Source of the DNA: Psilocybe cubensis
Taxonomy: Eukaryota
NCBI GenBank assembly: GCA_017499595.2
Contig: CM039006.1
Span: forward strand, 372,001 to 436,000
Length of the DNA stretch: 64,000 bases
Direction of reading: 5' to 3'
Positions 12,846-58,907 of this stretch are shown in pieces (within the stretch, counting starts at the first letter, position 1; every line of letters starts with the position of its first letter). Under the pieces are notes generated by a model. The model made no database searches and had not been told where the DNA came from. It saw only the letters and a list, made by a program, of their open reading frames with translations. Both the position numbers and the translations under genes were made by a program.

Positions 12846-14521
12846 CTAAGTCACTTTAAACTCAGATGACCAAGCCATTACTCGACTCCGCGATCAGTAA
12901 GGGCGACGGGACCGGAGTAGCTGGTTCTGTGCTACATGCAACGATGCGAGAGGATCAATGGAAAATCGTCTCCAATATCTTTATTCCTGAAGATCTTGAT
13001 TTTTGCAAGTGATTGCTTGCAACGAAGCCCGGTTAATAAATTCATAGCATAAGTAACCCTCAATCTTCAGTTGAAACATCTCTTCCATTTGCAACATTCC
13101 GGCGATGATCATGGCACATCGTTCTTAAGATCTTAAAGATCTTGAGAAAGGAGGCAATTTTGTAGACCTTTTTGCTAGAATTTTGAAAATTTTTTGGACT
13201 GTCACCGTCGTTTTGATCTTGTGGACTGTTAGGCGCCGGCCAGACTTTATTTATAGATTTTTTGAAGAACCCGCCAAATGCACAACCACAAAGAGAACTC
13301 TAGAAGCATGAAGTAACTTTATTTCAAAAGTAAAAGAGAAAGCGATGACGGACATTATGTATTTTACTCAATATGTACAGATATTATTCAAATAAATCGG
13401 TCCATTTCCCATAGGTCGAACACCGAATGCTGTAAAACTTACACTCAACTTGTAGGTCTTTTCCAACTATACATACTTCCATTCAGACCATACAGTCATG
13501 GGTTCCTGTCTATGATACCACAGAATGATATCAAGCGTTGTATACAACTACAGAGATGGATTAATTTCATATGTCAGGTTTATTCAAGGGGCAAGGGGAA
13601 ACGAGAGACTTTTTAAGTTAGTTTCAATCACACCTCCATTTTGTACTTTAAAAAACGTAAAATTGACACAAACTTAGAGCTCTCGCAACCTAAATAAATG
13701 TTGTGTAGAAATATTTCTAGTATACACTCCCTGCGTAAACTCAAGTTAAAAGGCACCTCGGGCAAACCACTGTTCAAATCACCCGAAGTACTGTAAAAAT
13801 AGCCTGATACATTGCGCACTTTGCCAATAGTATTATTAAGCGAGGATAGAAAATTACCCCTCCTTTTCTGTGCCATCCAATCGAAGAAAAAAACAACCGA
13901 ATTGTCACTGTCACCTACAGCTGATCCTCTAGATAGACATTGAAACCCCGATACTTGGTACATAGTAGACACCCTAGTGTAGAAAGGTGAGGAAGGCTCA
14001 CCCGTGCGTCTTAGCACATCGATTGCTTGGTGCACGATAATAAATAGATTACAAAAAAAAAGAATTGTCGCTGTGCCACGCGTCAGTTTTGCCCTTCCCA
14101 CGGTTCATTTAATAACGCGATCATGTGATCCGCACCCCTAAAATGTCAATGTAACCCATCATGTATTCATGACGCGGACGCGTCGATAGTTTATCATTAT
14201 GCATCGATCTTCAAAGGAGAACTACCGCGGTGACAGCTTCCAGGCATCTCTAATAAGCCCCAGTTTCTCTTAACTTATGCTGCTGGTGTTTAAGAGTGAA
14301 ACTCTGATTACTTGTTTTTCGCTACCATCGGACTTAAAGCTTAACCTCTGATCACTCACTGGTGGTCAACGACCAAAAGAAAAGAAACATGGTACATTGA
14401 ATGGTGAAACCGACTATACAAAATAATAACTAGTGATGATAATATGCTTGCTAGGTAAAAATTGAATCCCATCATCCTTCGAGAGGCCCGTCTATTCTAA
14501 AGGCCCAATTATAGGTCCTAG

Positions 14522-16782
14522 TTAGGCATTGACCTTCTTAACGATGAGAGGGAGCTGGGCATGGATGGAGTTGGAACCTTTGACAACGGGTGTCATCAAG
14601 AGGCCAACGTTCCAACCGATCTCTTTGTCCTTGGGTATGCTGAATTCGAGGGATTGGAGCAGAATGGCCAGAACAACTCCTGTTCAATACATCAGTATGT
14701 GTAATTTCTTAGAGCGTTCGGTGATCTTACTCATTTCAAGTTGAGCGAAGTTAAATCCACTGTAGTTTTCGTCAATGATTGTGTGCATCACAGGAATCAC
14801 CTATACTCACATACAAGCACGGTTCCCAGCAATGAAAGTCATTCTGAACAAATAAAGGGTTAAACTTGCGTCATGGATGATACAAAGAAAAACATACTGA
14901 TGGGCGAAAACTCCAGCCAAATCCTTAATCTTGGTTACACTTTCGGGGAGATCGGAAAGCCAACGCTCAGGCTTCCATTCACTGGCGTCTTCGCCCCAAG
15001 TCTTTGGGTTGTGATTTGCACCGATGATGTTGATGAAAATATCAGTGCCCTTCTCGACATGTACTTCGTTCATGACTGTGCCATCAGCACCGGTGATGGG
15101 GTGAAGGAGCGGGACAACCGTATCTTGCATAGTTCTAGTTTTTGCATGAGAATATGATATTATGAAATCGGATGTTCGACTTACTGTCGGAAAATAGTTG
15201 GAATGGGAGGGTGCCTAATTAAAAGTAAGTCTTCAAACGTCCTGAACAATATTCTACCGTAACGTACACTCTTAACGTTTCCTTGATCACAGCATCCAAG
15301 TAAGGAAGCGCAGTGAGATTGCTGAAGTCGATAGCCTCATCTTGGCCGTGATATGCCTCAGTAATCTCTGCCCGCAGCTTGGTTTGCACTTCGGGATGTT
15401 GTGCCAATAAATGAAGAGTGCGGGCAATAGCTCCGGAAGTGGTGTCCATGGCGGTGAAAACGAGAGTCCTTCACATGATGCTAAGCTAATATAAGGGAAC
15501 ATACTTGATGAATAACGTACGATATTTGACCAACGAGTTCATCTTCCGACATACGCTCAGATTCATCACTCGACCGATTTGCCCTTACTAAGTGTTTGAA
15601 TTAGAAAAGAATAGCGAAACGAATCGAACTGTGGCTCACAAAGAATACCCATTATATCTTTTCCGTCCTTGTCGTCAACACCAGCATCGATATCCTTCTC
15701 TTGTTCTTTCAGAATCTTTTGAGCTTCGTTGTCCATAATGTTCACAATGTCCACTAAACGCTGAAGGAGGGACCAGGGAATTAAACGCAGAACAAATCGA
15801 CGAAGCTGACGAGGTCCAAGGTATTTGAAGAAGGGAGTGAAAGGAGCACCTGGTACCATGACGGAAACAGTGGCCCTAGGAAGTGCATGAGAATCAACGC
15901 TTATTTAAGATGAGAAAAGTAGTGCGTACGCAAGTTCCTTTGTCGCGTCTGAGAATTCTGTGGCTTTGGCCATACTGCCAAATGAATGCCCCATCCCGCC
16001 TCTTCCGATGGCCTCGAGGGCAAATCTGTTAAGCCAGGCTGTGACATCAACTTCACGGGCGCTGCCTTTAACGAGAGACGAAATGTGTGTCTCGAGCTGT
16101 AATCACAATAGTAACAAGTTCGATATTCTACTACAAAAATACTGACCTCTCTAGCAATGTTAACAAACATAGGTGTCATTCCTCGGAGATATTTGACGGA
16201 GAAAGCTGGCGTCAGCATTTTACGCTGCTTTTTGTGTTGCGCTCCTGTAGTGGCCACAAGACCTGGTCCAAATAGCAGTCCATTCGTACTTCAAAAGACA
16301 ATATCGGTTAGACAGGAAGGGTTTCTCCATTTAAAAAACGTACGAAGCGAAAGCATCCCACTCCTCGAAAACGTCCTGCTCTTTCACAAGGATATGGTGT
16401 AGCGCCCTAGGATCATTAATCAAAAGAGAGCTGCCCTGTATCATATCGTTAATGAATGATCAATTACCAACGTTCAACGAGAAGCCAACTCACCCCAAAG
16501 AGAGTCCCAAACTTCGCCACTCCACCATAAACATTGTTAACATGGATTTGCCAGTCGCGTCCCGTGGCAGGAGCAATGAGATCCAACAAACTGCCTGTAA
16601 ATTGTAAGCTTGTCGTGGATGGAGTAAAAGTCGTTTCCGTAGAGCTCACCGGTAAAGAAATTGGAAGACGGTGGCCCTGGGACGTTACGCAAAGTCGATA
16701 CGCGTCTGTAGAGCCAGATACCTCCAAGACAGATGCTTGCTAGAAGTAAAGCACCGCCGTTGCCAGATATTGATGATGCCAT
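14522..16782 (-). CDS. Cytochrome P450, multi-exon
   Basis: N-terminal TM helix then VPGPPS; I-helix AMDTTS; ExxR (IKETLR); WKPERW; heme motif FIAGNRAC. Confidence 0.92.
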
Positions 16783-17582: not shown

Positions 17583-18795
17583 ATGTCTGCTGAAGTCGCA
17601 CGCGTTGCAATCGTTACTGGCGCTGCCCAAGGAATTGGCAAGTCGATCGCCCTCAGGCTAGCAGAGGACGGCCTCGACGTTGTGGTCAACGATATTCCTT
17701 CCAAATCTTCTGAACTTGACTCTGTCAAAGCAGCAGTTGAGGCCAAAGGGAGAAAATCACTTGCTGTAGTCGGCGATATTTCTTCTGAGGCTGATGTTAT
17801 CGCCCTCGTTGAAAAGACCGTCTCCGCACTTGGAGGGCTGGATGTGGTAAGTTCATTCCCCAGTCAATGCTCTACCTAAGTTTATAACATATTTTTAGAT
17901 GGTTGCAAACGCTGGGATTCTTTTCCCCACTCCATTGGTAGATTGTATGTGTCTCGTGCATTTTGAAGGGCGTGGATTTGGCGCTAATGTAGCACAGTAC
18001 CCGTTTCTGAATGGGATAGGATCTTCAACATCAACGCCCGAGGAACCTTCCTGTGCTACCGTCATGCCGCAAAGCAAATGATCAAACAAGGCCGTGGCGG
18101 ACGAATCATCGGTGCTGCATCCTCTGCATCAAAGCAGGGAATCGCGAATCTTGGCCATTACAGCGCATCGAAATTCGCTGTTCGAGGTCTCACTCAGTCT
18201 GCAGGTAAAGAGATTTATGTGAAGATTTTGAGCGACAACCTAAAACTTTATTCAGCACTAGAATGGGGAGCCCACAAAATTACAGTGAACAGCTACGCAC
18301 CAAGTACGTAAACGTTCTGCCTGCAATTACCGTTGCTGATAAGATTGTGGCCAGGCACCGTGGAGACCCCAATGGGTACGTAGATTGGCATTCTCATGCA
18401 ATACTCTCGATCTGATTCAGATTGATTCCAGTCGACAACTTTGTTTCGAGCGTTGGTGCTCCCAGGGACGCCTTCTACGCAGGAGTAAGTGACACCTTAC
18501 CATAAACCTTGAAAGATCTTATTCAACATTGAACTCACTTTAGCAAAGCCAACTTTCTGCCGTTGGATATCACGGTCAACCCGAGTACATCGCAGATCTG
18601 GTCTCATTCCTTGCTTCGAAAGGATCTCATCATATCACCGGTACGCATTATGTTTTGCTTCTATCGGTACTTCGAATTAACGCCTTTTTGTTTTAGGACA
18701 AACTGTAAGCATCCCGGAAACTATTGTTGTATCGCTGACTGACCAGTGCATCTGTTTATTAGATTAACATTGATGGAGGCAAGTTCTTCGACTGA
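17583..18795 (+). CDS. Short-chain dehydrogenase/reductase (acetoin/diacetyl reductase-like), multi-exon
   Basis: TGAAQGIG Rossmann motif, MVANAGI, GRIIGASS-like, catalytic YSASK, ITVNSYAP, ITGQT..IDGG. Confidence 0.9.
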
Positions 18796-19726
18796 GAAGG
18801 TAGCGCTGTTTTGCTTTAGGTGTTCAACGGTCCTAGTTTAAATCGCACTATCATAAACTGTACTTTGTATTAGAAACCGGTTAATTATCAGACACTTTTA
18901 ATCGCTTCATATTGTGGCATAGACAAACCTTCTTGGATGAAGAACTTAGACGCATTGCAAAGGATGGGATGAAGAGGCTGGAATGGGTGTTGTTTCGTTA
19001 CTGAATTCGTGCATGGCCCGAGCGTCAAGTTGATAATCACGTGAATACCTTGACATCTGACGGATCTTGATCAGGGGTAAAGCCGAGACGGGCGCTTGCG
19101 ATAATAGCGCTTAATCTAACCTCACGATTCCATGAACGAAGGTATACATATAACATGTAACGGGAGATGTCAACAATTTGGGATCTGGGAGTATTTTCAG
19201 ACTTCATTTCTATCCTGCTGTAGAATGTATTGTTGACAAGCATCTACCCAATATTTGCCAGAAAATTTGTGACGTCAGGAAGCAAACTTAGGCACCGAGT
19301 TCAGACTCGCTTACCGTGTATTGGATCTTGACAGAATCGCCTTCAATTGCCGACGCGTATTGCTCTGAAAATCTTCAATTCTCTATGGCATGAAAATCAT
19401 GTCCCTGTCTTTGTTATACATCTAAAATCCGTAGACGACAATCCTGCGTTAAGCATCTATATCCGACACATGGCGTAGAAACATATAATTAGCAGTAGGA
19501 TAAGCAACACATATCCTACCGCAGATTCATATCAACATTGATTATTGAATGAACTTTTTGCACCACCTTTGAGTCTTACTCTACGTACTACTACTGAGTG
19601 TAATACCCTGTATGATAAATTCTATGTATTTCCCCCCGTAATATTATAAACAAGTTCTATTGAGAAATTTATATTAGCTCCTGCATGTGTCATAATATTA
19701 TGTTTCAATCAGACATCTCCTCTTTG

Positions 19727-19747
19727 CCTGGACTCTTTAAGTCCAGG
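19727..19747 (-). other. Hairpin CCTGGACT-ctttA-AGTCCAGG, candidate Helitron 3' terminator
   Basis: Perfect 8-bp stem and 5-nt loop, about 50 nt past the RepHel stop and 14 nt before a CTRR (CTGA) followed by T. Confidence 0.4.
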
Positions 19748-19798
19748 TTTAGGGTGGTAGCATTTTTCTATAAAAGGAAATAGGTGGTCTCGTTCGGT

Positions 19799-22700
19799 CT
19801 AGATTGGTCTAGATTGTTCGACGTCGGACTTCGCTATGTTGTCCAGTCTGTTTAACTCGTTGCGCAGTTCTTCAGGTAACCGATTGTATATTTTATTCTC
19901 AGGGAACCATCGTAGAACTAGTAATCCAGATATGGATTTTACTCTGGAGAGCATTACATATGCACCTTGACCTCTTGCCGTTAATAAATCAACAATTACC
20001 CTATCAAGTGTGCGACCTTGTCCTTTATAGTCTGTGTACGCATACGCTGGTATTAGTGGGACTTGTTTCCGTGTAAAGCTGTCAAACAATTTGATATGCT
20101 TTTGGTATTTAACATCTATTGAAGTCGAAGAAGGGAAAATTGGAACAACATCTTTTTCTAGCCCGTCTACTTGTATTCCACAACCTTTGACGTGTACATA
20201 CACAGCTTTGCAGTATCGACGGTATTTCTCGTCCACTTCATATTTTATGTCTGTGACTATACCCTCAGTGCCATTGACTATTTTATCATCGAATGCAATG
20301 TTTTCTGTTATCATTACTTTCATTCCAATGAAAAGAGGTAGTTTTCCAAGGGCGTCGTTTGTTTTTGTTGAAGGTAGTCTCCATAATATCTGTTGGAACT
20401 CACCTGTAATCCTTTTTTTGTGTCTCTCATCTCGTGAATAGTATATATGTGGTGATATATTTGCTTTTGTTGAATGGTACTTGATTAGCTTGGCATTCAG
20501 GATGTCTCGTACGGCCTTGTTGCCTACAATGATAGGTGCATCTCTGAACAATGCTAGTGTTTTTGGATTAGAAGCCTGTTTCTGGATAAGTCTGTTATAT
20601 ATATAATGGTAATCTGACTGTTCATTGTCACTTTTAATATTGTTAATATTACTTCTGCAGAGGCCCAATCTTAGTCTATCAAGAAAAAGGGCATACTTTA
20701 TGTCTCTTGCGTGTCTTTCGTTTTTGACTAGTTGTATCACTGTTTTTACTTGTCTCCATAGAAATGCGCCATTTAGTTGTGATGGTCCTGACACGTTCCG
20801 AGCTTCTGCAAAAGACGGGTTCTTCACCAATTCATTTGCATATAATGGCTTTTGTAGAGGGGGTTTTAGTTGTGCGCAGTCGCCCATAAATATTACATTA
20901 ATTCCTCCGAATGGTTTATTGCTGTTAACGACGTCATCTCCTTTCCCTTGCCTAATTCTGATAGAGATTTCACTGAGGAATTTTGCGCTTATCATTGAGG
21001 TCTCGTCTATTATTAAAGTTTTTATGTATTTCCAAATTTGAATTAGTTTAAGTTTATTGGGTTTTGCTTGTGACTGATTTGCATGAGATACTATCAGTGA
21101 GTGTAGTGTTTGTCCTCCGATCAGCACTGCCGCTATTCCGGTCGGTGCTCCTAATAATAACTCATTCCTGCGATGCAAGCGCTCGAATAACATAATCAGA
21201 CATTTTATCAAATGGGATTTACCTGTACCGCCAACGCCTGCAATATGAATCAGCAACTGTTCCTTGTTGTCGGTTATGATATGGTTACCGATGATTCGGA
21301 ACGCCTTTAGCTGTTCTGGGTTATTTAAAAGTCCCATTTCTTCTGCGATGTTGTTCATGGTGTCAGTGTCTGTTATTGAATTGTAATTATGACTTAAATC
21401 ATACAAATCCTGGAGTATAGCTTGCTTGGCAATAGGTGCATAGTTCCCATTGCGATATCGTTTGGGTGGCGTAGTTATGTCGTCTGTGTCGGGTTCATGT
21501 AGCATTGCACGTTTTCTTTTTGATTTCATGATGGCGCGATGGCTTGCTAACAGATCATCCACTTCATGTGATGTTAGAGTTTGTTGGTTTACTGGAACTG
21601 ATTTTTGATATTCCGTGTCCACAGCAGTTTCCGTTGTATCCAGTGGGAGACACATGTCTAGAAATCTTGAAGTTTCCTCTCCTATGTTATCTATGGAGTC
21701 GTGTAAGTTTGTTGTAAAGTCTTCGTTGGGGTTTTCAATGCATTGGAAGGGATCTGGAGAGTATACATCGTTAGGGTTGAGGGTGTCTGTATTACCTTCC
21801 GTGTCTGTTAATATTATATCCTGTACTTCATCGGACACTACATCCTCGGATGTTTTTCCACGTCTGCGCTGCCTGTGTGCGTCGCGGGCCTCGCTACATT
21901 CTGTCAAAGCTTGCATGTTCTGTATGATGCGCGTGTGTTCTAGTTTCATTGATATCTCGTAGTTATGAAATGCGTCTGTCCATGTTTCTGATGGGGTCTT
22001 TAAATCTGATATATCCCTCCACGGTTTGAAGAGGAGTAACATGTCCCTTGCCCAGTCATCTTTTAGTTGATCAGACTTCAATGGATTCGGAATAGAAGGG
22101 CCTAGTATAATTGGTATACAACTTTTTCTTCTGATTGTCATATAATGGGTGAAATACTCAGGGTGCTCGTCGTTTAAGAATGATCCTGGACGTACTGCTG
22201 TTTCAATGTGTAACATTTCTTTGGTATACCGTTGTTTGATACCCCATGCTACAAAGTCATACAAACACAAATCTATGAATTTGTCGTTCGCTGGTCTTAA
22301 ACAATAGTCCAGTCGTTGGTTGGACGCCGTTATGTCTCTGTCACCCATATTTAACTCAACTGACTCTTCGTTTTCTTGTTCGTTGGTATTGCTTACGTCG
22401 TCTAATGTGCTGTTGTTGGGCGTCTGATTGGATTTAGTGTGATGAGACATGCAAAACCTTCTTATACTGTGCCATTTGAGTATAGCAAATTTGTGAGATG
22501 TGTAGTGGTCGCCTCCGCCTACTAGATAGCTCATTACTTGTGGTTGTGATATTTCCTGTCTGCCCATCATACTATTAACAGCTGTTATGATGGCACCCAC
22601 TGTTTGATTGTCTGATATTTCTGATTGATTTGCGGACATTTTGCTGTACGCTTTACTTACAGCATACGACAACGCGGCCATACCTGCATGAACTGGTAGA

Positions 22701-25660
22701 GATGCCTTTGTTATATAATCAGTAACATAGTACAAGAACGCTTTTGCTGCATCTCCTGACCCTACGAATTTAATGTCCATGTTGCACTGCAATAAGAATG
22801 ATACTATATCAGTGTGTTGCGCTAATCTTGGATGGTGTCTGCGGAGTAGTATCTCTTTTGTTATTTCGTCTAATGTAGTCTTTTCCAAGGTCTGCCCATT
22901 TATACCCATTCTGCAATTATTGTCTGATTTGGATTGACCTCGTTCAAGGTATTTCCAGCACGTTGCTTGGTGCTCGTGCCATGCGTACTGATGTAAGATT
23001 CGCTCCAGGAAGAAGTCGAACTCGAGCCAAAATTGGTTTATATCGGTATAATTTTGTGGGGAAGGTGATTGTATTACACCTGGATGAGGATCACCTGTTT
23101 CAGTAGATAGTATTCGTCGGGGGTAATCGTTAGTCTGTTGTTCGGATCCTACTGAGTTTGGAAATTCACATTGAATTATAGATTCGATCCACATGAACAC
23201 TCTTGTTTGATAATGTATTGATCGGGTCATTTCATCGCGTAGTTTCTGGGGAGATAAGTGCCCGTGCAACCAAATCAGCATGTGGCAATGTAATGTTCCT
23301 TTACCTTGTGCCTCGACAGTACCGTAGTACGCTGTACATTTGCCGTATAAACCATTTTCCTCGCGCCCGTATCGTAATATGACGTTAATGAAGTTGTTTA
23401 TCATTAGGTCAAAAAAACGTGCACATCCTGAAGGGTTCCGTGCTGCAAAGAGTGATCTTCTCCATTTCGTCCAGTCCTCTCCTCGTTCGATACTTTCCAA
23501 TGAAATATCCTCACCCGCTAACAGACGTACGATAGGGTTGTCCACGTCAGACGGGTTGATAGTGATGAATAGTGTTGGTGTTCCTTTATTATTAATCAAT
23601 GCCCTGATTTGGTTACGTAGAGTTAGTTTGTAGCCATCGCTCCCGGGTACGTGTTTTGATACCAGTCTGATCGAAGACAGTAGTCTAAAAGCTTCTTTTT
23701 CTTTTGTTTCTGTTGGTTTGTAATACGGATTTTTCTCACATTCTTTGGTTAAGTGACTTAACATGTCTAAATCGATATTTAACAGTTCGTTAGCTATTTT
23801 CTTGTGTGACGATTGGGATACCGAGAAACGTAGACTCTGGGACACTAGTGCCTTCCGACATATGTTATAGAAAATAAACGCGAATTCTGGGTCTTTCGCA
23901 AACGGGCTGTCGTCTACTAAAAGAAGATGTTTGAGTTGTTCCTCCATGCTTATTTTAATCTTTCGTCCGGGATGGTAAAACCCTCCGATACCCCAAGGGT
24001 CCAGATGGGGGAATAACCATGTCAAGATCGATGGATTTTGAAAGTCAGGTACCATACTAGATCCTGTACCAGAAGCCAGGAATGGTTTCCCAGTGAGACA
24101 TCTCTCCAAAGCAGTTGATTTCATAGTCAGGAATGCCTGTGGTGAGTTGTCTCCAGATGTATATCCTACATTTTCCATCAGTAATTCATTGTATAATTCG
24201 TCCTTTGAATTTTCATCCACATTTCGACATGTATAATCTGCGACGGCTGAGCTGATGGCGTCGTTATCGGTCATAGCGCCTATATGTACGGCGTGTGGTA
24301 TACCCTCGTCTTTGTCGTTGTCAAACAAAAGTCTCATATTCTCTTCGCTGTACTCGGTGCTCGCAGAGTATTCTGGATTTTCGGTTAATAGAAAGTGTAT
24401 TATTGTCTTTACCCTCGATCTTCGGACTAAGGTAGGTTTATATCTGTGAATGGTCTTACGGTTAGGTAGATCTTTACCGATGAATATAGCACACATTGTG
24501 TCCCTTATCGTGTCAGACGCAGGTGGTATAACATTGTTCATGCGTATCACGTCTAGCGGTGATACTAGAACGTTTCCTCTTATACCTTTCCTAGCTCGAC
24601 TCAACGTATTTTCGTTGTCGTCTTTGTCTTCTGTTTGTGTGGTGTGGTTCAATCTGCACGTGATTACACTGGACCGTGCTCGCGAACATAACATCCTGTC
24701 GAAGATAGTTGAATGTTCTATCGCCGTCTTCACGGTTTCTGGTAAACTTTCAATTCCATAATACATCCAGTTACACAAAGCAAATTTAGGCATAGTGAAG
24801 GCCGCTAGTGCTTTGTCACATTTTGGACAGAGACATAGCTTGCCAATACGATCACGGTATTCCATGCCTTTATAATGCAGTATGGCCTTTCTGTAAATCT
24901 TGATATCATAAGTCTTAGGTAAAATTGAATCTGGCAAGTGTGGATTTTGTAGTAGATTCAGCTTGGTATTGTCTGGGTTTACCCATATACAATCGCGCTT
25001 GAAAAACCTCAAAGCGCATGCCGCGCATACTACATTGGACAGTCTGTCCGTAGACATTTCTTGTTTCCATTCCCGTATAATTTTTAATTTTTCATCTTTC
25101 CCGATAGGTTTAAGATGATCTTCGTCGATGGGGACCGCTTTAACTCGATTGGGTTGCTGTGATTCTGTAATCGTATCCGCGCAGTCTATACCAGGATTGT
25201 CTTGTGGTGGGTTGTTCAAATTTTCTTTGGCAACAGTTCGTCTTTCAAAATCGAAATTGCCACACCGTTCTTCGAAAATACTGAATATATGTTGACGTGG
25301 TCTTGCCATGCATTTGAAAACATATATCAAGTTACTGCATTTGCTACTGCATTGGTGTTCAAATATCTTAGCGAATAGTTTGGGTTTAGTTAAACGGGAA
25401 AATTGTATGCCATGGGAATCGGCTATGGCTTTCATGTCATTCATAGTAAAATATCTGAACCAGAACATCAGTACAGAGATACTGACAGTGAATACGAGAT
25501 TTGTAGTGTCATTTATGTGTTTTATAGCGTCATCATGATAAAGCCATATTGTGGTGAACTTGTAATATTCGTTGAAACGTAACACTTTAAGCTTTTCTAC
25601 ATATGGACGGCTATATTCGGGTTTGTACCTGTAGATATCGATATCTGAAATTTCGTCCAA
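19799..25660 (-). CDS. Helitron Rep/helicase transposase (N-terminal Cys-rich DUF6570-like region + HUH Rep + PIF1-family SF1B helicase); true start uncertain
   Basis: 1953-codon stop-free ORF. Rep motif 1 PTLFITINP, HUH motif 2 YYGTVEAQGKGTLHCHMLIW, motif 3 YVTDYITK. Helicase GVGGTGKS, IIDETSMIS, PFGGINVIFMGDCAQLKPP, PAYAYTDYKGQGRTL. Upstream LCPKCDKAL..PKFALCN. Confidence 0.95.
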   Translation of the reverse strand: MDEISDIDIYRYKPEYSRPYVEKLKVLRFNEYYKFTTIWLYHDDAIKHINDTTNLVFTVSISVLMFWFRYFTMNDMKAIADSHGIQFSRLTKPKLFAKIFEHQCSSKCSNLIYVFKCMARPRQHIFSIFEERCGNFDFERRTVAKENLNNPPQDNPGIDCADTITESQQPNRVKAVPIDEDHLKPIGKDEKLKIIREWKQEMSTDRLSNVVCAACALRFFKRDCIWVNPDNTKLNLLQNPHLPDSILPKTYDIKIYRKAILHYKGMEYRDRIGKLCLCPKCDKALAAFTMPKFALCNWMYYGIESLPETVKTAIEHSTIFDRMLCSRARSSVITCRLNHTTQTEDKDDNENTLSRARKGIRGNVLVSPLDVIRMNNVIPPASDTIRDTMCAIFIGKDLPNRKTIHRYKPTLVRRSRVKTIIHFLLTENPEYSASTEYSEENMRLLFDNDKDEGIPHAVHIGAMTDNDAISSAVADYTCRNVDENSKDELYNELLMENVGYTSGDNSPQAFLTMKSTALERCLTGKPFLASGTGSSMVPDFQNPSILTWLFPHLDPWGIGGFYHPGRKIKISMEEQLKHLLLVDDSPFAKDPEFAFIFYNICRKALVSQSLRFSVSQSSHKKIANELLNIDLDMLSHLTKECEKNPYYKPTETKEKEAFRLLSSIRLVSKHVPGSDGYKLTLRNQIRALINNKGTPTLFITINPSDVDNPIVRLLAGEDISLESIERGEDWTKWRRSLFAARNPSGCARFFDLMINNFINVILRYGREENGLYGKCTAYYGTVEAQGKGTLHCHMLIWLHGHLSPQKLRDEMTRSIHYQTRVFMWIESIIQCEFPNSVGSEQQTNDYPRRILSTETGDPHPGVIQSPSPQNYTDINQFWLEFDFFLERILHQYAWHEHQATCWKYLERGQSKSDNNCRMGINGQTLEKTTLDEITKEILLRRHHPRLAQHTDIVSFLLQCNMDIKFVGSGDAAKAFLYYVTDYITKASLPVHAGMAALSYAVSKAYSKMSANQSEISDNQTVGAIITAVNSMMGRQEISQPQVMSYLVGGGDHYTSHKFAILKWHSIRRFCMSHHTKSNQTPNNSTLDDVSNTNEQENEESVELNMGDRDITASNQRLDYCLRPANDKFIDLCLYDFVAWGIKQRYTKEMLHIETAVRPGSFLNDEHPEYFTHYMTIRRKSCIPIILGPSIPNPLKSDQLKDDWARDMLLLFKPWRDISDLKTPSETWTDAFHNYEISMKLEHTRIIQNMQALTECSEARDAHRQRRRGKTSEDVVSDEVQDIILTDTEGNTDTLNPNDVYSPDPFQCIENPNEDFTTNLHDSIDNIGEETSRFLDMCLPLDTTETAVDTEYQKSVPVNQQTLTSHEVDDLLASHRAIMKSKRKRAMLHEPDTDDITTPPKRYRNGNYAPIAKQAILQDLYDLSHNYNSITDTDTMNNIAEEMGLLNNPEQLKAFRIIGNHIITDNKEQLLIHIAGVGGTGKSHLIKCLIMLFERLHRRNELLLGAPTGIAAVLIGGQTLHSLIVSHANQSQAKPNKLKLIQIWKYIKTLIIDETSMISAKFLSEISIRIRQGKGDDVVNSNKPFGGINVIFMGDCAQLKPPLQKPLYANELVKNPSFAEARNVSGPSQLNGAFLWRQVKTVIQLVKNERHARDIKYALFLDRLRLGLCRSNINNIKSDNEQSDYHYIYNRLIQKQASNPKTLALFRDAPIIVGNKAVRDILNAKLIKYHSTKANISPHIYYSRDERHKKRITGEFQQILWRLPSTKTNDALGKLPLFIGMKVMITENIAFDDKIVNGTEGIVTDIKYEVDEKYRRYCKAVYVHVKGCGIQVDGLEKDVVPIFPSSTSIDVKYQKHIKLFDSFTRKQVPLIPAYAYTDYKGQGRTLDRVIVDLLTARGQGAYVMLSRVKSISGLLVLRWFPENKIYNRLPEELRNELNRLDNIAKSDVEQSRPI

Positions 25661-26073
25661 CGCGTGAAATCGGAATTAATCCGTGTCAATTTAAATTCAT
25701 TTAATATCAAGTTTCAAGTTTAACCAGATTTGAATTGGATACAAGGTGACGAATCGAATTTTTCATCAGCGATAATTCCCATAGGTAAAACGATTACTTA
25801 CCGCGTTGCAGAGTCGACGCTTTCAACGACGATACCGTGTTTTGTGTGTTAATATAAGTGGTCTGCGTTGTGTAATTTGACAGATAGTTCTACTATAAGT
25901 TTTTGTAAGCGCTCACCATTCTTCAATATATCTGGAAATGGGTCTGTCGGGGCGTTGGTGTTGATTTTATCTGTTCTGGTCTTTTGTCTTATTTAAATAG
26001 GGTGTACTCGTTTATATAGAGTTTTGTCTGTGTATGGTATCTGGTACTGTTACTGAAATTCGTTCAATGATTC

Positions 26074-26474
26074 TTTAATTGGGTCCAGTCACGAACTGTT
26101 CATGTAACACCAAGTAGGCGACACTTTGTCCGCCGTGTGTTGTTATTTTGTTTGGTTGTCAGATCATATGAGTAATAGCAACTATCACGCTAACTAGTCA
26201 GCACTTTTACCCATCGTGGGAGGAAGTGTACGTGTTTATGTTTACGTGATGACGTATGCAAGTATTACTGTCACTTAGCTTGTGTTTAATTGGGTCCAGT
26301 CACGAACTGCTCACGTAACACCAAGTAAGCAACACTTTGTCCGCCGTGTGTTGTTATTTTGTTTGGTTGTCAGATCATATGAGTAATAGCAACTATCACG
26401 CTAACTAGCCAGCACTTTTACCCATCGTGGGAGGAAGTGTACGTGCTTATGTTTACGTGATGATGTATGCAAGT
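26074..26474. repeat. Tandem direct duplication, period 211 bp (about 190-bp copies 26074-26263 and 26285-26474)
   Basis: Both copies start tttaattgggtccagtcacgaactg and end gtatgcaagt, with a few substitutions. Confidence 0.92.
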
Positions 26475-26624
26475 CTTAGCTCGTGTTGTAAGTGACGGTG
26501 TATTGCATTCTGAGTCTCTTTATGTGTAAACCGCGACGTAGATTTAAGGTCAGGTCGTCAGACAGAGTCAGTGTGCGCAAGTTCACAGCTCCATTGTTAT
26601 GGCGAATCTTGGTGAGCGCCTCAA

Positions 26625-27912
26625 ATGTCGCGGTTTGTTGTGTTTGTAATGTTATGATAGAGATTCATAGGTTCTCTCCCGCTCGAATTCTTATTCTTGA
26701 TGCGCAGGAGCGACTACTCGCTAAGGATTCGCGGCGTTTTGTTCTCTTTCCCATTCGGTACATTAAGGTGTTGTTGTTAATGTAACATTTTTTCCTTCGG
26801 GACTAACTTTGTTTGAATTGCCTTGGAACTGCCCTGTTCAGATTTGGAAAGCATACTTGCATGCTGTGACGACGTTATGGGAAGCACGTTGTGCTGGTTT
26901 ATCACGTGACTCTAAGGATTGGACTGAGTGTCTGTCATTCCAACAACGATGCGGTGGCATCTTCTTTTTCAAACTTTCTATTGCTTCTCATGGGATACAT
27001 AAGCGACTATTGGATATAATCTCCAAAGAAATTACAGTCCCAGAAGCACATTGCTATTTCAGTTTCCAGTCGGTCAAGTGGGTGTGAATTTTTTATACAT
27101 GGATTTATCTCAGGATTCGATTAACAACGTTCTAACAGTGAAAACGTCCACCAGGAGGCGATGGCCAAGATTACGCACGGTCTCACAGGAATTCGAATGG
27201 ACGATTGCGTCGATGAATGGGAACTCTTGCGTCCAAAGGAAAAATTTATGAATATTTGGACGAGATCTTCCGTGTATCCTTTCTCTGAGAGGTTGCTCGT
27301 TTTTATATTCATTCAAGGAATATTTGGTATTTCTCTGTCCCGGCTTCTACAATGGTTTTCTGGCAAAGATTACCTCCCAACTATGGTATCTACTTACACC
27401 CGGATCTTCAATGACAGGGAATGTCATGTAGACTTTGTCTCGCTGCTTTTTTATCATTTGAAAAGGCGTCCGTTAACCAGTTTTGTCAACGAATTCGTCG
27501 GGACCATTGTTAAAATCGAAAAAAAATTCGGCAGTGGTATGATAATGGTTTGTTTTTTAATGGTCCGTGTCTGATTAGCATGCTGAATATTATAGATTTG
27601 CTGGACCTTTCCGAGATAGACATTCCATTAGACGACCTGAATCGGTACGTGGAATGCAAAGCAGACGCCCTTCTGGTGTCTCTTGGGTACAAGCAATTGT
27701 ACGGTACATGTAACAAAGTATGACATTGTTCGTCTGAATTTGGGATTCAGTTGACGAGTTTTTAGGGGATCGATGATCTTATCCCTATCGTCCCTGGGGA
27801 ACTGAAAGCTGGTTTTTTTCTCGAGGAGATGGCGCTGGCGTATATCCCCCCAACTATGGAAGACGCTATTTTAGACGGACAGTTCGGTAATCATCTCCTT
27901 GACCTTTCTTGA
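26625..27912 (+). CDS. Diverged ribonucleotide reductase small subunit (R2/Rnr2 family) paralogue, predicted catalytically inactive; start uncertain (26625 or 26654)
   Basis: Spliced reading ERLLAKDSRRFVLFPIRYIK / IWKAY..DSKDW..ITVPEAHCYFSFQ / ENVHQE..FSERLLVFIFIQGIF..NDRECHVDF..KIEKKF / YVECKADALLVSLGY / KAGFF..stop 27910-27912 aligns by eye along the length of eukaryotic R2; no internal stops with GT-AG introns. Confidence 0.85.
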
Positions 27913-28213
27913 ACATGTTATATGGTTTATTCATACTTTTTGTTGATGTAATATCTATGTACCCGCTACTGAAGGGTAAATCCTAGACACCGTGGAATAA
28001 TACAACTTCCTGTTGAAATTAAACCCTTGTCATAGAGTTCTGGATGGGAAGGTGAATACTGTTTCATTCCAATTATCCGTCTGTGGTGATTTTGCGCTCT
28101 TTAGACTGTATGCCCAGTATCAATCTCGGAAAACTCCAAGCGCGTGGCAATCTATCAGTTCATATTACTGTGACTATCCACCCAACCAATGTCCACTTAT
28201 TATGCTGTGACTA

Positions 28214-28375
28214 ATGTACTCCCACCCCGCGCCCGCGCAGGCGCAGGCGGCACAGCCCAAAGCACCTGAAAACGAGCTCTTCTCGTTCGACTTCCACGCA
28301 CCGTCTCTGGTGCAGAACACGGCTGTGATGGAGCAGCCGAAGAAAGACGTGAAGCAGAATATTTTGTCGTTTACA
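28214..28375 (+). pseudogene. Short fragment resembling the C-terminal region of an Agaricales ArfGAP (Age2-like)
   Basis: ELFSFDFHAP..QPKKDVKQNILS motif, isolated from any GAP domain. Family call from recall only. Confidence 0.45.
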
Positions 28376-28549
28376 TTAATCAGCGTTTGTACGCTGCCTC
28401 TGTTTTCTTGTGATTATGATAGACATTAAAATTTCATGTAGACTGTAGGTTGTACAGACTTTCTCATGCTTGGATTAGGGTATGTACCTCAATGGGTATC
28501 TTGGTATCGCTGTGCTTTTCTATACCGCTTCACTGGCGGACTCGTGTTA

Positions 28550-30370
28550 CTCTAGGAGAAGATGGTATGTATGAAGATGTTCTACGCTTTTGGATGGACA
28601 AAGACAAAGAAGGCAACACACCCGACGCGTTGCAGGAGGTTATCGAGCATCTCATGTACCAAGGAAAGGCCTGTCCTCATCTATACTCGCTTGTTCTGAG
28701 GTTCTTGACCTCGACGCCGGAGCTGCTTAACCGACATCAAACTGGTTTGAAGGACATCCTGGAGCATATCGACGACGTGCAATTGATTCTCCTTGGGAGT
28801 CTTACAAGTTTTGAGTCGAAATGGAGTGGCGAGTGTCGGTTTAATGAAGCAATGGTTGATCAAGACGATCAAGGAAAGTAGGAGTGAAATTCAGAATGTA
28901 AGTTTCCCTTTCTATTTAATCTGTTCGTTGTTTTTCCTTTCGTAGGATCAAGCTCTCACGAAATCGTATCGTCTGGAGATCGTTGACAGGATAAAGCAAT
29001 TTGCTGAATTGACAAACACAGAAGAGTCTCGGGTGTTCTATGACAAGGTGCTCCAGTTACATCGACCAGCTCGATCTTCCCAGCGTGCACTTCATGTGTA
29101 ACCGTTCTTATCATCCATGGTATGTATTGTGTGTATATCTTCTTCTGCGTGTCTTCTGTACGTGTATTCCTCTAATCGCCATTCGCTTGCTCGTAGGTAC
29201 ATCGCGGACGGGCACTGGAAAATGTCAGTGCAATGTCAGTGCGGTCAGTGCATGTCAGTGCATACCACAGCAATGTCAGTGTAAACTGCAGTGATGTCAG
29301 TGCAGTGTCAGTGCATGTTTCAAATCATCTATAAATTGGTCAGGGTGTGTCAGTGCGTCCTGGGTTATGTTAGTGCGTTGGTTAGTTCATCGTGTGGTGG
29401 CAAAGTTTTTACTTGTTAGATTGAAAGTCGTGGGCCGTGAGAAAGTTAACTTAGGGAGGATTAAAACATACAGTCTCGGAATTTATGGGCCAGACATGGC
29501 TAAATAACAAGATATAGAAGTAGACATATATTTTCTACATTTTCAAGTAATGATCCGGTGTACTAAATCAAGCATAGATGTTGGAAAATGAATGAATTAT
29601 GCTGGAATCATTAGATAGACGCCTCAGAGTATCCCTGTGTATAAATGATCCAATATGCTTGTTTGACAATGATTTGGGATCATACTTGGCTGCAGGCGCA
29701 ACAATGCTTTGAAATATTGGCCTTAGCTTGGGTGCGGTTTTTTAGTAGGGAGGACGTCCCTATGACACAGCTAAAAGGGAAAGGGAACTAGAAAGTCCCA
29801 TCGGTGCATCCTAGTTGAGCAGGTCTTTGGGACAGTTGATGGACCAGAGGTAATTCATACCAGTCTACCTACCTACCATTGTGTTCTTCGTTTGAAATAA
29901 AAGATAACATGATTATAAGGTAAAAATAATGTCAGTGCATCGTCAGTGCACCATTACTGAAAGTCAGTTTATGTCAGTGCATGTGAGTGCACCGTCAGTG
30001 CATGTGAGTGCATCGTCAGTGCATGTAAGTGCACCGTCAGTGCATGTCAGTGCACAGTCAGTGCAAATGCTTGGCGGTCAGTGCATGTGTCAGTGCATCA
30101 ACTCTTGGCAGTCAGTGTTAAAATAATTCTAGGAGGATACTAGATTTCCAGACACTTAAAATCCGGTCAAAATCCATCTAAGTAATCCTGCAATAAACAT
30201 AGTTTTATTGTATAGAAGTACAGACTTCAATTTTTTCACAAATCCTAAGTGATGTCAGTGCATGTCAGTGCATAGACATTATATTGTCAGTGAATGTCAG
30301 TGCCGACGTGCACTTACATGCACTGACATGCACTGACATTTCTTGTTGCCCATCGCGGACAACGAAGTCG
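28550..30370 (+). pseudogene. Vps11/Pep5 C-terminal fragment, frameshifted and interrupted by a MITE
   Basis: MYEDVLRFWMD..HLYSLVLRFLTSTPELL..VASVGLMKQWL..; RING start QLDLPSVHFMCNRSYH; last exon R-Y-I-A-D|N-E-V split by the insertion at 29210-30351. Confidence 0.78.
29210..30351. mobile_element. Non-autonomous TIR element (Mutator-like MITE), 1142 bp, 9-bp TSD
   Basis: TSD ATCGCGGAC at 29201-29209 and 30352-30360. TIRs gggcactggaaaatgtcagtgca / tgcactgacatttcttgttgccc. Many GTCAGTGCA subterminal repeats. Confidence 0.88.
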
Positions 30371-30384
30371 GTAATAACATGGAG

Positions 30385-30546
30385 ATTTGTTTGAAGGGCG
30401 GTGGTGTTATACCAACGTCTGTCTGTCCGGAATGCGGTGAAGCTAATAGAGGAGTGTTTCACATGTTGCTTGACACAAATACTGTAGATTCACGTTTCGA
30501 AGGAATCCTCAGGGACATGGGCGTCACTGATCGAGTTTTCTACTGA
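30385..30546 (+). pseudogene. Fragment resembling an RZ-type zinc finger C-terminus (ZNFX1/RNF213-like fungal proteins)
   Basis: GGVIPTSVCPECGEANRGVFHMLLDTNTVDSRFE resembles GGAM..CPECG..IGG..H.LL..N..FE. Confidence 0.4.
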
Positions 30547-31181
30547 CACAGACAGTGTATCTCATGACAAACGTGGTCTTATATTTCTGAACCTGGTGAA
30601 ATGATAGTTTAAATAAATAAATGTCATATGCAATGAAGCTCATGTACTTTGTACTGAATCGCGAACGATCGCAAAGCAACCTCCATCAACTTAAATAATT
30701 CCCGTGATTGAAAGGAAGTGGGTTTTGTGGTTTTTTTTTTAATCGCCAAATTTTGGCGCGTTGGGTCGTGTCTCTGCAACCATTTACATAAACTCATACG
30801 TTTCACGGTCAAATTCGGTCCGCTGATCCTCTTTTTCCTTGTGCAGTTTCCGTGTGGCAATGTTTTGTTTCACGAACTCTTTCGTTGTTGACCCATGTAT
30901 CGTTGCTTATGGTCTGCTTTTATATTGAGATAGCCTCCAGGCCTGTGTCTGTCCCGTTTGACTCTGTAAATACCCATTCTTTACTGTTTCGCTTTCCTTT
31001 AAATTTCTACGCTTGTTCTTCGTTGTATCGCTGCTATTGACCATTTTTAACAGTGACATCACTCCTAACCTATCTCTTACGTCTGCTGTGCGATTTGTCG
31101 TATTGTCGGAGGAGTTAGATGTCGACTCAGTCATTGGCGATAGTTAGTTGCCTGTTTGTGAAGTGTATAAGGTGCGTGTCT

Positions 31182-31232
31182 GTTTTTTTTTTTTTTTTTT
31201 TAGTTGTATTCTAATCCTCAATACCTGATTAT

Positions 31233-31282
<50 letters not shown>
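31182..31282. repeat. Long poly-T tracts
   Basis: Run of about 20 T near 31183-31201 and of nearly 50 T near 31234-31282. Confidence 0.9.
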
Positions 31283-31284
<2 letters not shown>

Positions 31285-34200
31285 CTACAAATTGCTTAAT
31301 TACATGCCTTACAAAATCCAATTTCATACCTACGAATTGCTTAATCCCATGCCTTACAACAATATTCAATAACATGCATTTTACCTCTCTGAAAAGTATG
31401 ATTTGTATACTCTGCCAAACAGTCGTTGGCATTGCCGGTGTCGAACGGTGTCACCGTGAATTATAAAATAGGGGCATGTTTACTACTGACGCTAATTCCA
31501 AACAAACGGACCGCGTCGGATTTGACTGCGGGCCCCAAGCATGATTTTTTTTCCACCATTTTTTCGAGGTCGATTGTCGTTCAGTCTCAGCGACATCGAT
31601 CTCAGTACCACTAATCATCGTTTACGATATTGCACGCCATAGTCACTCCAAAAGCTTCATCATCAACCCTTAGAATCCTCAGAAGGGACTTTACTCGAAC
31701 CGGCAAAAGATGATCGTCACTGTACAGGAAGGCTAGCACTTGTCTACCTAGACCTACCACCTTGCAACATATCATATCATATACACGTACACCGAGGCAA
31801 CATCTTCGCAGGCCATATACTACAACAGCGACCGGGCAGTACCGTCATCTTCCGACACTTCCCCACCCAACACGAATATGAACCAGAACCGGAATCAGAA
31901 ATAAATCCCATAACATTCGCTGACCCTCGTCGGCCCGACCTGTTCTACTATTACACTCCCGTTCCAATGCCATTCTCACCCGTGCTCCCGGCCTTCGCAC
32001 TGTCATATTTTGATACTCTTCCCTGCTAGTGCTGTTGGCGGGGAGGGCTCCGAAGCATTGATTGGGTGGCTTCCTGTACAGACGACTGTCGAAGGAGGAG
32101 TGAAGGGAGGGGCAATACATGGAGAAGGGCAGGGTTCAGCGTTGGATGATTTCATAGGGAACGGTAAGTCTTGTATTCAATTTCCTCTCTGCTTGAGCGC
32201 GTAGAAAGTGCGGCGGGTGCGGTTTATGCTGCCCTGCACCCCACCCTTTCTGTTTATCTGAAAACAAGAAAATTCTTAACTGATACTCTGATATCGATAC
32301 GATGAAGCAACAGACAAATTTCTCTCGTTCCTGCACATCACCATCCAAACTGTACTTGAACAGGGACAAGACGATATTCGGAGAGATGCCGCTATTGCCC
32401 ATGGGAATGGCTGGATGCATATTGGCGGTAGGTCTCTTTGCTTCCATTCCTTAAACCTATTTCAGTTCTTCGAACCGAGACCCCACTTAAATACGGGTCA
32501 AAACTCATGTTTATTTCGCCTATGTATGTGCGGTGAATAGATCAGCGGAATATTCAAGTACTGGGACGCGTCGGTGATCCAGACGAAATCTTAGTGTCTG
32601 TGCTCGTGCAGGATGGAAAGGTGAATGATTCAATGATAATCTCTCTTCACGTCGCTCCCTTTAAAGCCACTTCCAATCATCCCCATATCCATGACCGTAT
32701 GCTGACCCAACAATTTTTCCCTCTCCAAACACCCAGATTGTACCAGGCACATACGATGCCATGCCTTCATATCTGATATGCACCGTCGATGGTGTGTTGC
32801 AGTTCATTCTCGTGCTCGTTGGATGTCTTAGGGAAGTCTTGGTCCAGTCTTGGGCCGCTACTGCTGATGTAGACCAGGCGTATTCAGTGGGATGAGCACC
32901 TTAAACCTGGAGCCAAAAGCTGACGTGATTCGAAAATGTTGGTAACCGGACTTGAATGGCAAAGCGACGAGCGTGCCGCTGCAAATGGAAATGTCCACTT
33001 CACCTTCAACCGTCACCATCACCACCACCCCTCTTCAAGGTTCCAACAAGACACCACCAGTCCCCTTCAAGGCTCTAAAAACATTTACATGGACTCGAAT
33101 CGTACGGTAGTATTGTTTCGACGGACAATATAAACGAGCTCTGCGCGGGTTAGTCTATATGGATGTGGGCTACACAACAGACACCAGCGGTACGTACCTG
33201 GATGTACTACAACCAACCATCGCTAACACATCCTTCAAAACTTCAACGATACACCCGCGTGGACTCGACCCGCGACCGTATACTGGACGATAAACGGGTC
33301 AGTGTGTATAAATGGACACTGCAGACATATCTGGTATGCACCTGCATTACATACCAAACCACTCTCCCTAATACACTCAGAACACCGCCAATCGTCTGTT
33401 CAGCGCCGTCCGGTCATGACTGACGGAGGTGTACCTGTATTATGTTAGTGATACTGGACTCGGTCTCTCAGCATGGCAGGTATACACCTGCATTCCATAC
33501 CCTCAACACCCACTCAGAACCCTACCCGTTGAGTGTCTGTCGCCGTTTTCCACCACTGCTGATGGACTGTTCAGTTAGTCCACTTCACTTACTATACTCG
33601 ATAATGTGTGCTGCGCCGCAGCTTGGAAGTCGCGTCGGGAATGTCAAGGTTCGTGCAGATCAGCTGGTATAATTAATCACTATCTAGTCACCCTACCCGT
33701 ATCTGCTAATCCCACCAAGCACAGCAATTGCAGTGTCCTTCCACCCATCCCTCAACTGGTCAGACTGGGCTTGTTGGTGATGACGGTAATCAGACGGAGA
33801 TCCGTGTATAGGCAGTAACGTGTTTATTGACCTACAGGTGTGGATGCAAAGTCAATCATCATGCGAGGAGACAAAGGACGTATAGGGTACGTATCTTTTC
33901 TACTGGTCATTCGGGTTAACGACGCGTCCCATGTTCAATAACACGCAGTTCGACTGTGAGTCGGGCGCGGTAGGCCACGTCGTATCCCAGTATTGTGCTG
34001 GGTGACATGTAAGAGGCTGAGACTCACCTGACCAGCATGCTAGCGTGGCGCGATCCGTCGTCAAGTGCATTCTCCGTGGGGTGCTCCTTGGACAACAGGT
34101 GTCGTGTCAGAGTCAGCAATAGCAGAAAGACGATGACAAACCGTGACTTACTAATCAGCCGCGGCGCACCACGTCCGGGTGGCACAGAGGACCGAACATT

Positions 34201-58519: not shown

Positions 58520-58646
58520 CCTCCTCAAAAAACTCCTACTACTAGTGTCATCTTAATTTCGCCAGTGCCGAGAGGTTATAGGTTGATTATTGGTCCAGGT
58601 GGTCAAGAGTACTTGGTGCCTTGCCATCTGGTTGAAGACATAAATC

Positions 58647-58686
<40 letters not shown>

Positions 58687-58907
58687 TTTTTTGAATCCTA
58701 TGAACATAAAAAAAGGATGGGTTTAGAAAGAACAATGGCATCGGTACTATATGCTCATCTTGTCCTGTGTCTATTGTACTGACTTTCGCGTTTGAAAAGG
58801 AAGAAAACACATATGGAGACCGCCGCATCCCATAAAGGAGGTACATTTACTTCTCCCACCAAACCTTCTGTAAGCATCCGCTTTTCTATACAATTTTTAA
58901 AATTGGA
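58520..58907 (+). repeat. Copy B of the dispersed inverted duplication (partner 44232-44594)
   Basis: Reverse complement of copy A with an expanded poly-T tract; reads PVPRGYRLIIGPGGQEYLVPCHLVEDIN on +. Confidence 0.88.

Follow-up and report, generated by a model that had tools for sequence, protein, structure and literature searches.

A degenerate ribonucleotide reductase R2 gene in Psilocybe cubensis as a probable passenger of a Helitron clade and a possible Rnr4-like partner

The question raised by the 64,000-nucleotide stretch of Psilocybe cubensis DNA analysed in the present study (GenBank assembly GCA_017499595.2, contig CM039006.1, positions 372,001 to 436,000 of the forward strand; hereafter the window) is why a gene for a ribonucleotide reductase (RNR) small subunit, R2, that appears to have lost its catalytic centre lies head to head with the transposase gene of a Helitron, a rolling-circle DNA transposon. 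Our answer, to which we give about as much credence as doubt, is that the R2-like protein, designated P0001, is a radical-less, metal-site-degenerate descendant of an R2 passenger of a fungal-type Helitron clade, that its gene is arranged divergently from that of the transposase RepHel, and that it has been kept as a non-catalytic partner of the kind represented by Rnr4 of yeast.

The R2-like gene is intact, as had been claimed in an earlier annotation made from the letters of the window (hereafter the sequence-only reading). Its six exons on the forward strand (26599-26611, 26661-26767, 26842-27077, 27139-27536, 27596-27717, and 27766-27912), when joined, reproduce exactly the public protein P0001 (340 amino acids (aa) plus the stop codon) in one stop-free frame, and the introns (49, 74, 61, 59, and 48 nt for introns 1 to 5) have GT..AG borders in five of five cases; the start of the gene needed correction from 26625, which falls within intron 1, to the true ATG at 26599. 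In the public annotation of P. cubensis, P0001 is named 'Ribonucleoside-diphosphate reductase small chain', and the translation of the 132-aa exon is 100% identical to it. The Pfam family PF00268 matched exons 3, 4, and 5 in the correct order, and the whole protein scored 146.7 bits against this profile (cut-off 33.6; E 1.1e-42), covering profile positions 1-276 of 281, while 17 R2 sequences in the PDB matched P0001 at E<=1e-3. An all-helical R2 fold was predicted, the top Foldseek matches being human RRM2, p53R2, and yeast Rnr2 (target-normalised template modelling (TM) score ~0.84), and the predicted local distance difference test score (pLDDT) was 77-79 for the single-sequence fold and 79.8 on average for the AlphaFold2 (AF2) model, in which it reached ~90 for core residues 40-290. 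By Pfam and predicted fold, P0001 is a full-length R2.

The residues by which a radical-generating enzyme is recognised are missing from this R2. The residues were checked in an HMMER alignment to yeast Rnr2 (1smq_A), in a 29-row alignment, and in a second multiple alignment. P0001 retained three of the six metal ligands of the class Ia R2 set (Asp, Glu, His, Glu, Glu, and His), and the radical Tyr, four residues past the first His ligand, was replaced by Met (Table 1, in which the ligand numbering follows the Gymnopilus R2, P0110). The ligands and the Tyr were kept in 24 of the 24 R2 rows of the 29-row alignment that lie outside the subfamily described below, the one exception being the Asp column of P0096, which is mis-modelled. 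Each ligand and Tyr substitution that had been listed in the sequence-only reading was reproduced in the alignment to yeast Rnr2 and in the 29-row alignment; a proper alignment, which might have restored the conserved residues, left them changed. The replacement of the C-terminal tail by HLLDLS was also confirmed, P0001 ending in ...FGNHLLDLS and canonical R2s in -DF (...DEDF in the canonical Agaricomycete R2s), and no alternative 3' splicing of the gene in the window yielded a -DF end.

The tie between this gene and the Helitron, which had likewise been proposed beforehand, was upheld by the copies of the gene and by its layout in related elements. RepHel has HUH-type, two-Tyr, and Walker A motifs, no internal stops, and Pfam matches to Helitron_like_N (3e-36), DUF6570, and PIF1, and 1130 bp separate its first Met (25468) from the ATG of the oppositely oriented R2-like gene, in agreement with the head-to-head arrangement originally described. 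P. cubensis has several copies of the R2-like gene, with at least five gene models in the assembly (three identical accessions, one partial, P0004, and one fused, P0003). DNA contigs of two sequencing runs match the intervals 19784-26150 and 26416-28717, the differences numbering 0-3, and the P. cubensis element looks recently active.

When the RepHel of the window was searched against metagenome contigs, 21 loci were obtained. Four of them (L001, L004, L009, and L011) have a RepHel 43-48% identical to that of the window and 10 kb of upstream DNA each, and in every one of the four tblastn detected an R2 gene that is oriented oppositely to RepHel and located upstream of it; since L009 and L011 are 99% alike, these four loci represent three distinct elements. 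In gene models built from coordinates, one exon measured 239 nt in each of the four loci (236 nt in the window) and another 413 nt in each (398 nt in the window), and a further exon measured 122 nt in the three loci that have it, as in the window. No R2 gene was found in the four loci that have a less similar RepHel and 2.1 kb or more of DNA upstream of it (L007, L012, L014, and L019), and the RepHel open reading frame (ORF) was broken in each of the three that were checked for this (L007, L012, and L014). Because the same head-to-head position and exon sizes recur in four of four related loci, comparison of these loci indicates that R2 is a long-standing passenger gene of one Helitron clade and that the P. 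cubensis copy is a radical-less descendant of it.

In the R2 proteins of L001, L009, and L011, no ligand has changed, the radical Tyr and the Trp of the radical pathway are in place, and the sequence finishes in -DF after a terminal micro-exon, and the RepHel beside R2 is unbroken in L001 (1968 aa) and L011 (1944 aa), to both of which the RepHel of the window is 47% identical. The R2 of L004 is degenerate in a different manner (Asp to Glu, Glu to Lys, Tyr to Leu, and Glu to Leu), and its RepHel is in two pieces. In L009, ~1.2 kb that is absent from L011, probably an insertion into one copy, disrupts RepHel at 14353-15579, and no common 3' motif or hairpin was found downstream of RepHel in nine related loci.

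Between L001 and L011, R2 showed 0.195 nonsynonymous differences per nonsynonymous site (pN) and 0.91 synonymous differences per synonymous site (pS), the latter being saturated, and the two elements are 71% identical in R2 and 61% in RepHel. Because pN is low against a saturated pS and R2 is more conserved than RepHel, strong purifying selection has acted on this transposon-borne and apparently competent R2; the synonymous rate (dS) was saturated in all informative pairs except L009/L011, which has only 7 differences, so that selection is not expressed as a numerical ratio of nonsynonymous to synonymous rates (dN/dS). The order of identities is reversed between the window and L001/L011, with 28-30% for R2 and 47% for RepHel.

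The sequence-only reading regarded the P. cubensis protein as a pseudo-enzyme that had arisen independently. The loss of catalytic residues stands, but the protein is not a one-off, as its substitutions are common to an old subfamily. A search of 1.84 billion representative proteins with the 132-aa exon gave 79 matches at E<=1e-3, the single one below 1e-30 being P0001 itself. The nearest non-self relatives, P0005, P0007, P0008, and P0083 (the last from a separate search), are unnamed Logan-derived ORFs 30-38% identical to P0001, with which they make up a subfamily of five. The changes of Glu to Gln and of Glu to Arg were found in five of five members, and the radical Tyr was replaced in all four that cover the site (Met in P0001, Ile in P0007, and Leu in P0008 and P0083). 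The subfamily has the further motifs LLFYH..RRP and, in the tail, EEM..AY, which is conserved between P0001 and P0007; in P0083, the retained Glu ligand has also become Gln and the Asp adjoining the lost Glu has become Asn. The ends of the relatives' ORFs coincide with introns 3 and 4 of P0001, which fits exons of a homologous eukaryotic gene. The five members formed a 100/100 clade on very long branches in two trees, with a terminal branch of 1.85-3.07 changes per column. Since identical substitutions recur in proteins that are only 30-38% identical, the dead form is, on these comparisons, an old subfamily, in which the reading frame has stayed open. Pattern scans for further relatives gave 173 matches in metagenome contigs and 160 in viral contigs, of which none was confirmed in either set, and the ESM Atlas returned generic R2 clusters only.

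A second divergent R2-like clade was also observed (P0009, P0012, P0027, and P0006), two members of which are from Ephemerocybe angulata, a species that also has a canonical R2 (P0127). This clade retains the metal ligands, and P0009 has Cys at the position of the radical Tyr.

Regarding descent, P0001 is only ~31% identical to Agaricomycete R2s, which are themselves 77-88% identical to one another. The source of the dead subfamily was apparently a catalytically intact R2 of the Helitron clade rather than a host R2 gene duplicated recently in P. cubensis. In an approximately unbiased (AU) test, a single clade of all 8 Helitron-linked and subfamily R2 rows was not rejected (difference in log-likelihood 0.47, p-AU 0.295), a result that permits a single capture and does not prove it; L009, being 99% identical to L011, was left out of this test and of the second tree. 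The dead subfamily fell on the Agaricomycete side of a 98/97 split in the first tree, and in the second, to which the Helitron R2s had been added, the base was unresolved and the canonical Agaricomycete R2s stood with other eukaryote-type R2s (90/81).

The comparison with yeast Rnr4 that the sequence-only reading had drawn proved apt, since the motif RDRGAY of Rnr4 (1jk0_B) aligns with NDRECH of P0001 (exon 4) and has the same change of Glu to Arg at the same ligand position. Like P0001, Rnr4 (PDB 1jk0_B and 1sms) is a paralogue with the R2 fold that has lost iron ligands and is unable to form the tyrosyl radical (PMC9431586 for Rnr4). The two proteins also differ: the Glu that is Gln in P0001 is retained in Rnr4, and a His retained in P0001 is Tyr in Rnr4; by HMMER, the match of P0001 to Rnr2 (1smq_A, E 2.8e-38) is slightly stronger than that to Rnr4 (E 2e-34); and P0001 is multi-copy, is carried by a transposon, and comes from a separate lineage with relatives that are still catalytically intact. 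Since the relatives of P0001 include intact Helitron R2s, an origin separate from that of the Saccharomycete Rnr4 can be argued.

Rnr4 is the non-catalytic small subunit of the Rnr2-Rnr4 heterodimer, and modelling places P0001 against a catalytic R2 at the interface by which R2s usually dimerise. A dimer model of P0001 residues 25-325 with residues 75-385 of the Gymnopilus R2 scored 0.87, the best of three controls scoring 0.12; for reference, 51 of the 78 solved complexes and 2 of the 108 mismatched pairs attain that mark. Structures of R2 dimers and of 1jk0 are already solved, so that this pass may only reflect likeness to them, and the Gymnopilus protein, from another genus, takes the place of the host R2. 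At least 83% of the contacts were common to the runs, with a partner pLDDT of at least 77, and the N-terminal arm that contacts the other subunit (residues 28-35, RRFVLFPI) is nearly unchanged at 7 of 8 positions. A separate canonical RNR2 of P. cubensis was not among the 120 canonical Agaricomycete R2s listed for an Agaricus R2 query. Our best guess is that P0001 serves as an Rnr4-like non-catalytic partner of the host R2.

The sequence of events may be envisaged as follows. The R2 of the ancestral Helitron would have supplied an extra small subunit alongside the transposase and would have raised the synthesis of deoxynucleoside triphosphates (dNTPs) for rolling-circle replication, as DNA viruses do. 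In the lineage of P. cubensis, catalysis would then have been lost, with the protein being kept as a non-catalytic partner like that of yeast; P0001 would pair with the catalytic R2 of the host through the usual R2 dimer interface, and this pairing would modulate the host RNR by either helping or interfering with it. The dead R2 of P. cubensis and the intact R2s of related Helitrons together suggest that this transposon lineage disturbs the provision of DNA precursors in the cell, and one may speculate that P0001 acts as a decoy for RNR inhibitors or alters dNTP pools.

A number of points weigh against this proposal. The extreme C-terminus of R2 is the binding site for R1 (PMC4245953), and because the terminal -DF is absent, an action of P0001 via R1 is doubtful. 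Identity at the predicted dimer interface (13 of 33 positions) is not significantly higher than in the remainder of the core (72 of 233; Fisher p 0.33). L004, with its degenerate R2 and broken RepHel, shows that decay of cargo happens in this clade, and the four unnamed members of the subfamily are known as ORFs outside a genomic context. Protein databases take in open ORFs only, which biases any argument from an open frame, and the P. cubensis copies are near-identical and thus provide no test of selection within the genome. The two trees disagree on where the Helitron R2s attach relative to the Agaricomycete R2s, so we make no claim on the donor lineage. Furthermore, the place of the gene inside the termini of the element depends on copy number and conserved layout rather than on mapped ends, and its transcription and splicing are indicated by the public annotation only.

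There are two serious rivals, a recent loss of function and a function unrelated to RNR. According to the former, which we regard as rather unlikely, the R2 of the clade worked in the past, and that of the P. cubensis lineage has since become functionless and has stayed unbroken only through recent amplification. The loss of the catalytic residues and the tail, the very long branches, the faster divergence of R2 than of RepHel in the P. cubensis lineage, and the state of L004 are all consistent with such a relic, and the near-identity of the copies reduces their intactness to a single observation. On the other hand, 340 codons are open and all five introns keep their borders, whereas in simulations of neutral drift from each of two intact R2 genes (L011 and L001) none of 1000 runs was stop-free at 30% protein identity, with a mean of ~12.5 stops under a simple substitution model that leaves indels aside. 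This contrast makes simple decay unlikely, and the dead copy was probably not junk, at least for most of its history. The derived residues and the motifs LLFYH..RRP and EEM..AY, being common to proteins 30-38% identical, demand long constraint after catalysis had been lost, and the pLDDT values of the single-sequence fold and of the AF2 core also speak against a relic.

The second rival supposes that the R2 fold has been re-used for another interaction, e.g., with RepHel, with the second passenger protein P0002, or with a host defence or checkpoint factor, and we consider it unlikely. In its favour, the surface of P0001 is strongly diverged and its dimer interface not specially conserved, and the R1-binding tail has been replaced, yet P0001 and P0007 have the conserved motif EEM..AY in common in the tail. 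In P. cubensis, P0002 always travels with the R2-like gene, and inactive viral R1 homologues that act in signalling provide a precedent (PMC5469499, PMC11772975). Nevertheless, this rival has no known partner to offer, P0002 is absent from the related loci, the dimer-contact arm RRFVLFPI is nearly unchanged, and the modelled heterodimer passes its controls.

The remaining two explanations are far weaker. P0001 may still be an enzyme in which the remaining set of His, Glu, His, and His, with the new His at the Asp position, binds one metal for a different chemistry, and Glu120, His123, and His215 are indeed kept and His90 gained, but this is most improbable in view of a site that is not conserved within the subfamily (Gln for the retained Glu and Asn for the neighbouring Asp in P0083) and an Arg at the position of the metal-bridging Glu, as in the non-catalytic Rnr4. 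That the gene is a host paralogue merely located beside a Helitron, the 5' end of which was not mapped, is hardly credible given the layout repeated in four of four related loci (three distinct elements), the at least five genomic copies, each paired with P0002, and the contig breaks that place the repeated unit at 19725 to at least 29238.

The features of the P. cubensis element are listed in Table 1. The region between RepHel and the R2-like gene, which probably serves as a shared promoter region, contains a two-copy tandem repeat (26074-26267 and 26285-26478, 96% alike; repeat family D5). At the left edge (19725), DNA contigs of runs X1 and X3 cease to match and contigs from other contexts begin to match; no CTRR motif was found there. 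P0002 is represented by at least four accessions on four contigs; their numbers neighbour those of P0001 and P0004, and P0003 is a fusion of P0002 with the R2-like protein. Adjacent numbers presumably denote adjacent genes, in which case P0002 was amplified together with the R2-like gene. It had no Pfam match below E 0.08 and no tblastn match in the related Helitron loci.

On the right-hand side, the contig breaks show that the repeated unit extends from 19725 to at least 29238. The summed contig depth at 28900-30723 was ~10 times that of the flanks, which is not taken as a measure of copy number, and single-copy contigs resume at 30486, so that the right-hand (5') terminus of the element is to be sought within 29238-30486 or at the edge of this region. 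Neither an inverted nor a direct match of at least 10 nt was found between 19690-19860 and 28700-31300, and no asymmetric inverted repeats were found. Dense GTCAGTGCATG-type short repeats on both strands at 29220-30340 may be a separate high-copy element or a 5' region common to non-autonomous relatives. The exact RepHel protein was absent from the protein collection under five candidate start codons.

Table 1. Features of the P. cubensis Helitron and state of the R2 active-site residues in P0001
Feature	Position	Strand	Remarks
R2-like gene, six exons	26599..27912	+	Spliced translation is P0001, 340 aa, a predicted catalytically degenerate RNR small subunit
Helitron RepHel ORF	19799..25675	-	1958 aa stop to stop, first Met 25468, unbroken
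Divergent intergenic region	25676..26598	.	Between RepHel and the R2-like gene
Left edge of repeated unit	~19725; 8-bp-stem hairpin 19727-19747	-	Hairpin 52 bp beyond the RepHel stop codon
Second passenger gene, P0002	28211..28881	+	204 aa, of no known family; next gene after the R2-like gene
High-copy short-repeat region	29238..30486	.	GTCAGTGCATG-type repeats, family D6; contigs break at 29238
Ligand	Asp147 (P0110)		His in P0001 (His90; IASHGI)
Ligand	Glu178 (P0110)		Unchanged in P0001 (Glu120; ENVHQEAM)
Ligand	His181 (P0110)		Unchanged in P0001 (His123; ENVHQEAM)
Radical Tyr	Tyr185 (P0110)		Met in P0001 (ENVHQEAM)
Ligand	Glu241 (P0110)		Gln in P0001 (IQGIFG)
Ligand	Glu275 (P0110)		Arg in P0001 (NDRECH)
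Ligand	His278 (P0110)		Unchanged in P0001 (His215; NDRECH)

Two RNA runs, X4 and X5, had no contig over 20236-27987, which is not evidence on expression. They can be assigned to this species because they contain spliced contigs of a neighbouring gene at 17680-18970 on the reverse strand, with introns of 55-66 nt and no mismatches. One RNA contig of run X5 (2181 nt) holds only 19725-19813 of the element, i.e., 89 bp comprising the hairpin and the last RepHel codons, amid unrelated sequence, which suggests a short derivative or solo element end in a transcribed region elsewhere.

Other parts of the window also contain repeats. Three adjoining pairs of inverted-repeat arms (44232-44586 and 58527-58907; 104-139 nt, 96% complementary) bracket ~14 kb and may mark the termini of a large element of the terminal-inverted-repeat type. 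At 46833-47170, an 18-bp unit is arrayed in tandem in ~13 overlapping copies, and at 51907-52694, a 183-bp unit occurs five times in tandem (63-100% identity). T runs of up to ~60 nt are present at 31168-31290 and 58632-58700, and the G+C content falls to ~0.32 at 36-38 kb and 62-64 kb.

As a broader and more tentative proposal, a fungal Helitron clade may encode its own R2 and thus be the first transposon known with a gene for dNTP synthesis, a working R2 being co-expressed with the transposase in some lineages and a radical-less partner re-tuning the host RNR for rolling-circle replication in others, including P. cubensis. In a literature search that took in papers on the Helitrons of Pleurotus and Fusarium, with supplementary cargo tables outside its scope, we found no report of an RNR gene on a transposon or Helitron in the portions of text covered; among the 12 papers that contain both Helitron and ribonucleotide reductase anywhere, none joined the two in its title, and one of these terms reached the abstract only in a study of Arabidopsis TEBICHI. 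Helitron cargo and R2 pseudo-enzymes are already known as kinds, and the main value of the present results is in the conserved pairing of R2 with RepHel, which would imply a constraint by nucleotide supply on Helitron replication that is strong enough for the element to retain the gene. The clade also provides a natural series from an intact R2 to two differently degenerate forms, with a parallel in yeast Rnr4, that will be useful for understanding how an essential radical enzyme becomes a pseudo-enzyme, and the P. cubensis element is usable for experiments.

Large DNA viruses and phages carry RNR genes. Such viral RNR genes and the catalytically dead R1 homologues UL45/M45 of betaherpesviruses resemble the present case in that a host-type RNR subunit is borne by a parasite and, in some lineages, a dead copy is re-used (PMC5469499, PMC11772975); in P. 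cubensis, the carrier is a fungal rolling-circle DNA transposon, the subunit is R2 rather than R1, and any new function is a proposal. An R2 fold without the radical Tyr is also found in the class Ic R2 of Chlamydia and in R2-like ligand-binding oxidases. These proteins keep a complete two-metal site, whereas P0001 has lost three of the six ligands, and the Chlamydia R2 chains were weak matches to P0001 (E ~2e-5; Foldseek ranks 20-33). Among Helitrons, those of plants carry RPA-like genes, extras from the host replication machinery (PMC5148889), and HELPO1 of the basidiomycete Pleurotus carries the captured genes capA-capF of unknown function (PMC4289320), the available text of which makes no mention of an RNR gene. 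The R2-like gene resembles both as an extra protein-coding gene carried by a Helitron. It differs from the cap genes of Pleurotus, which lie downstream of RepHel, in that it stands upstream and head to head, and in that R2 has been conserved across elements with RepHel proteins that are only 47% identical.

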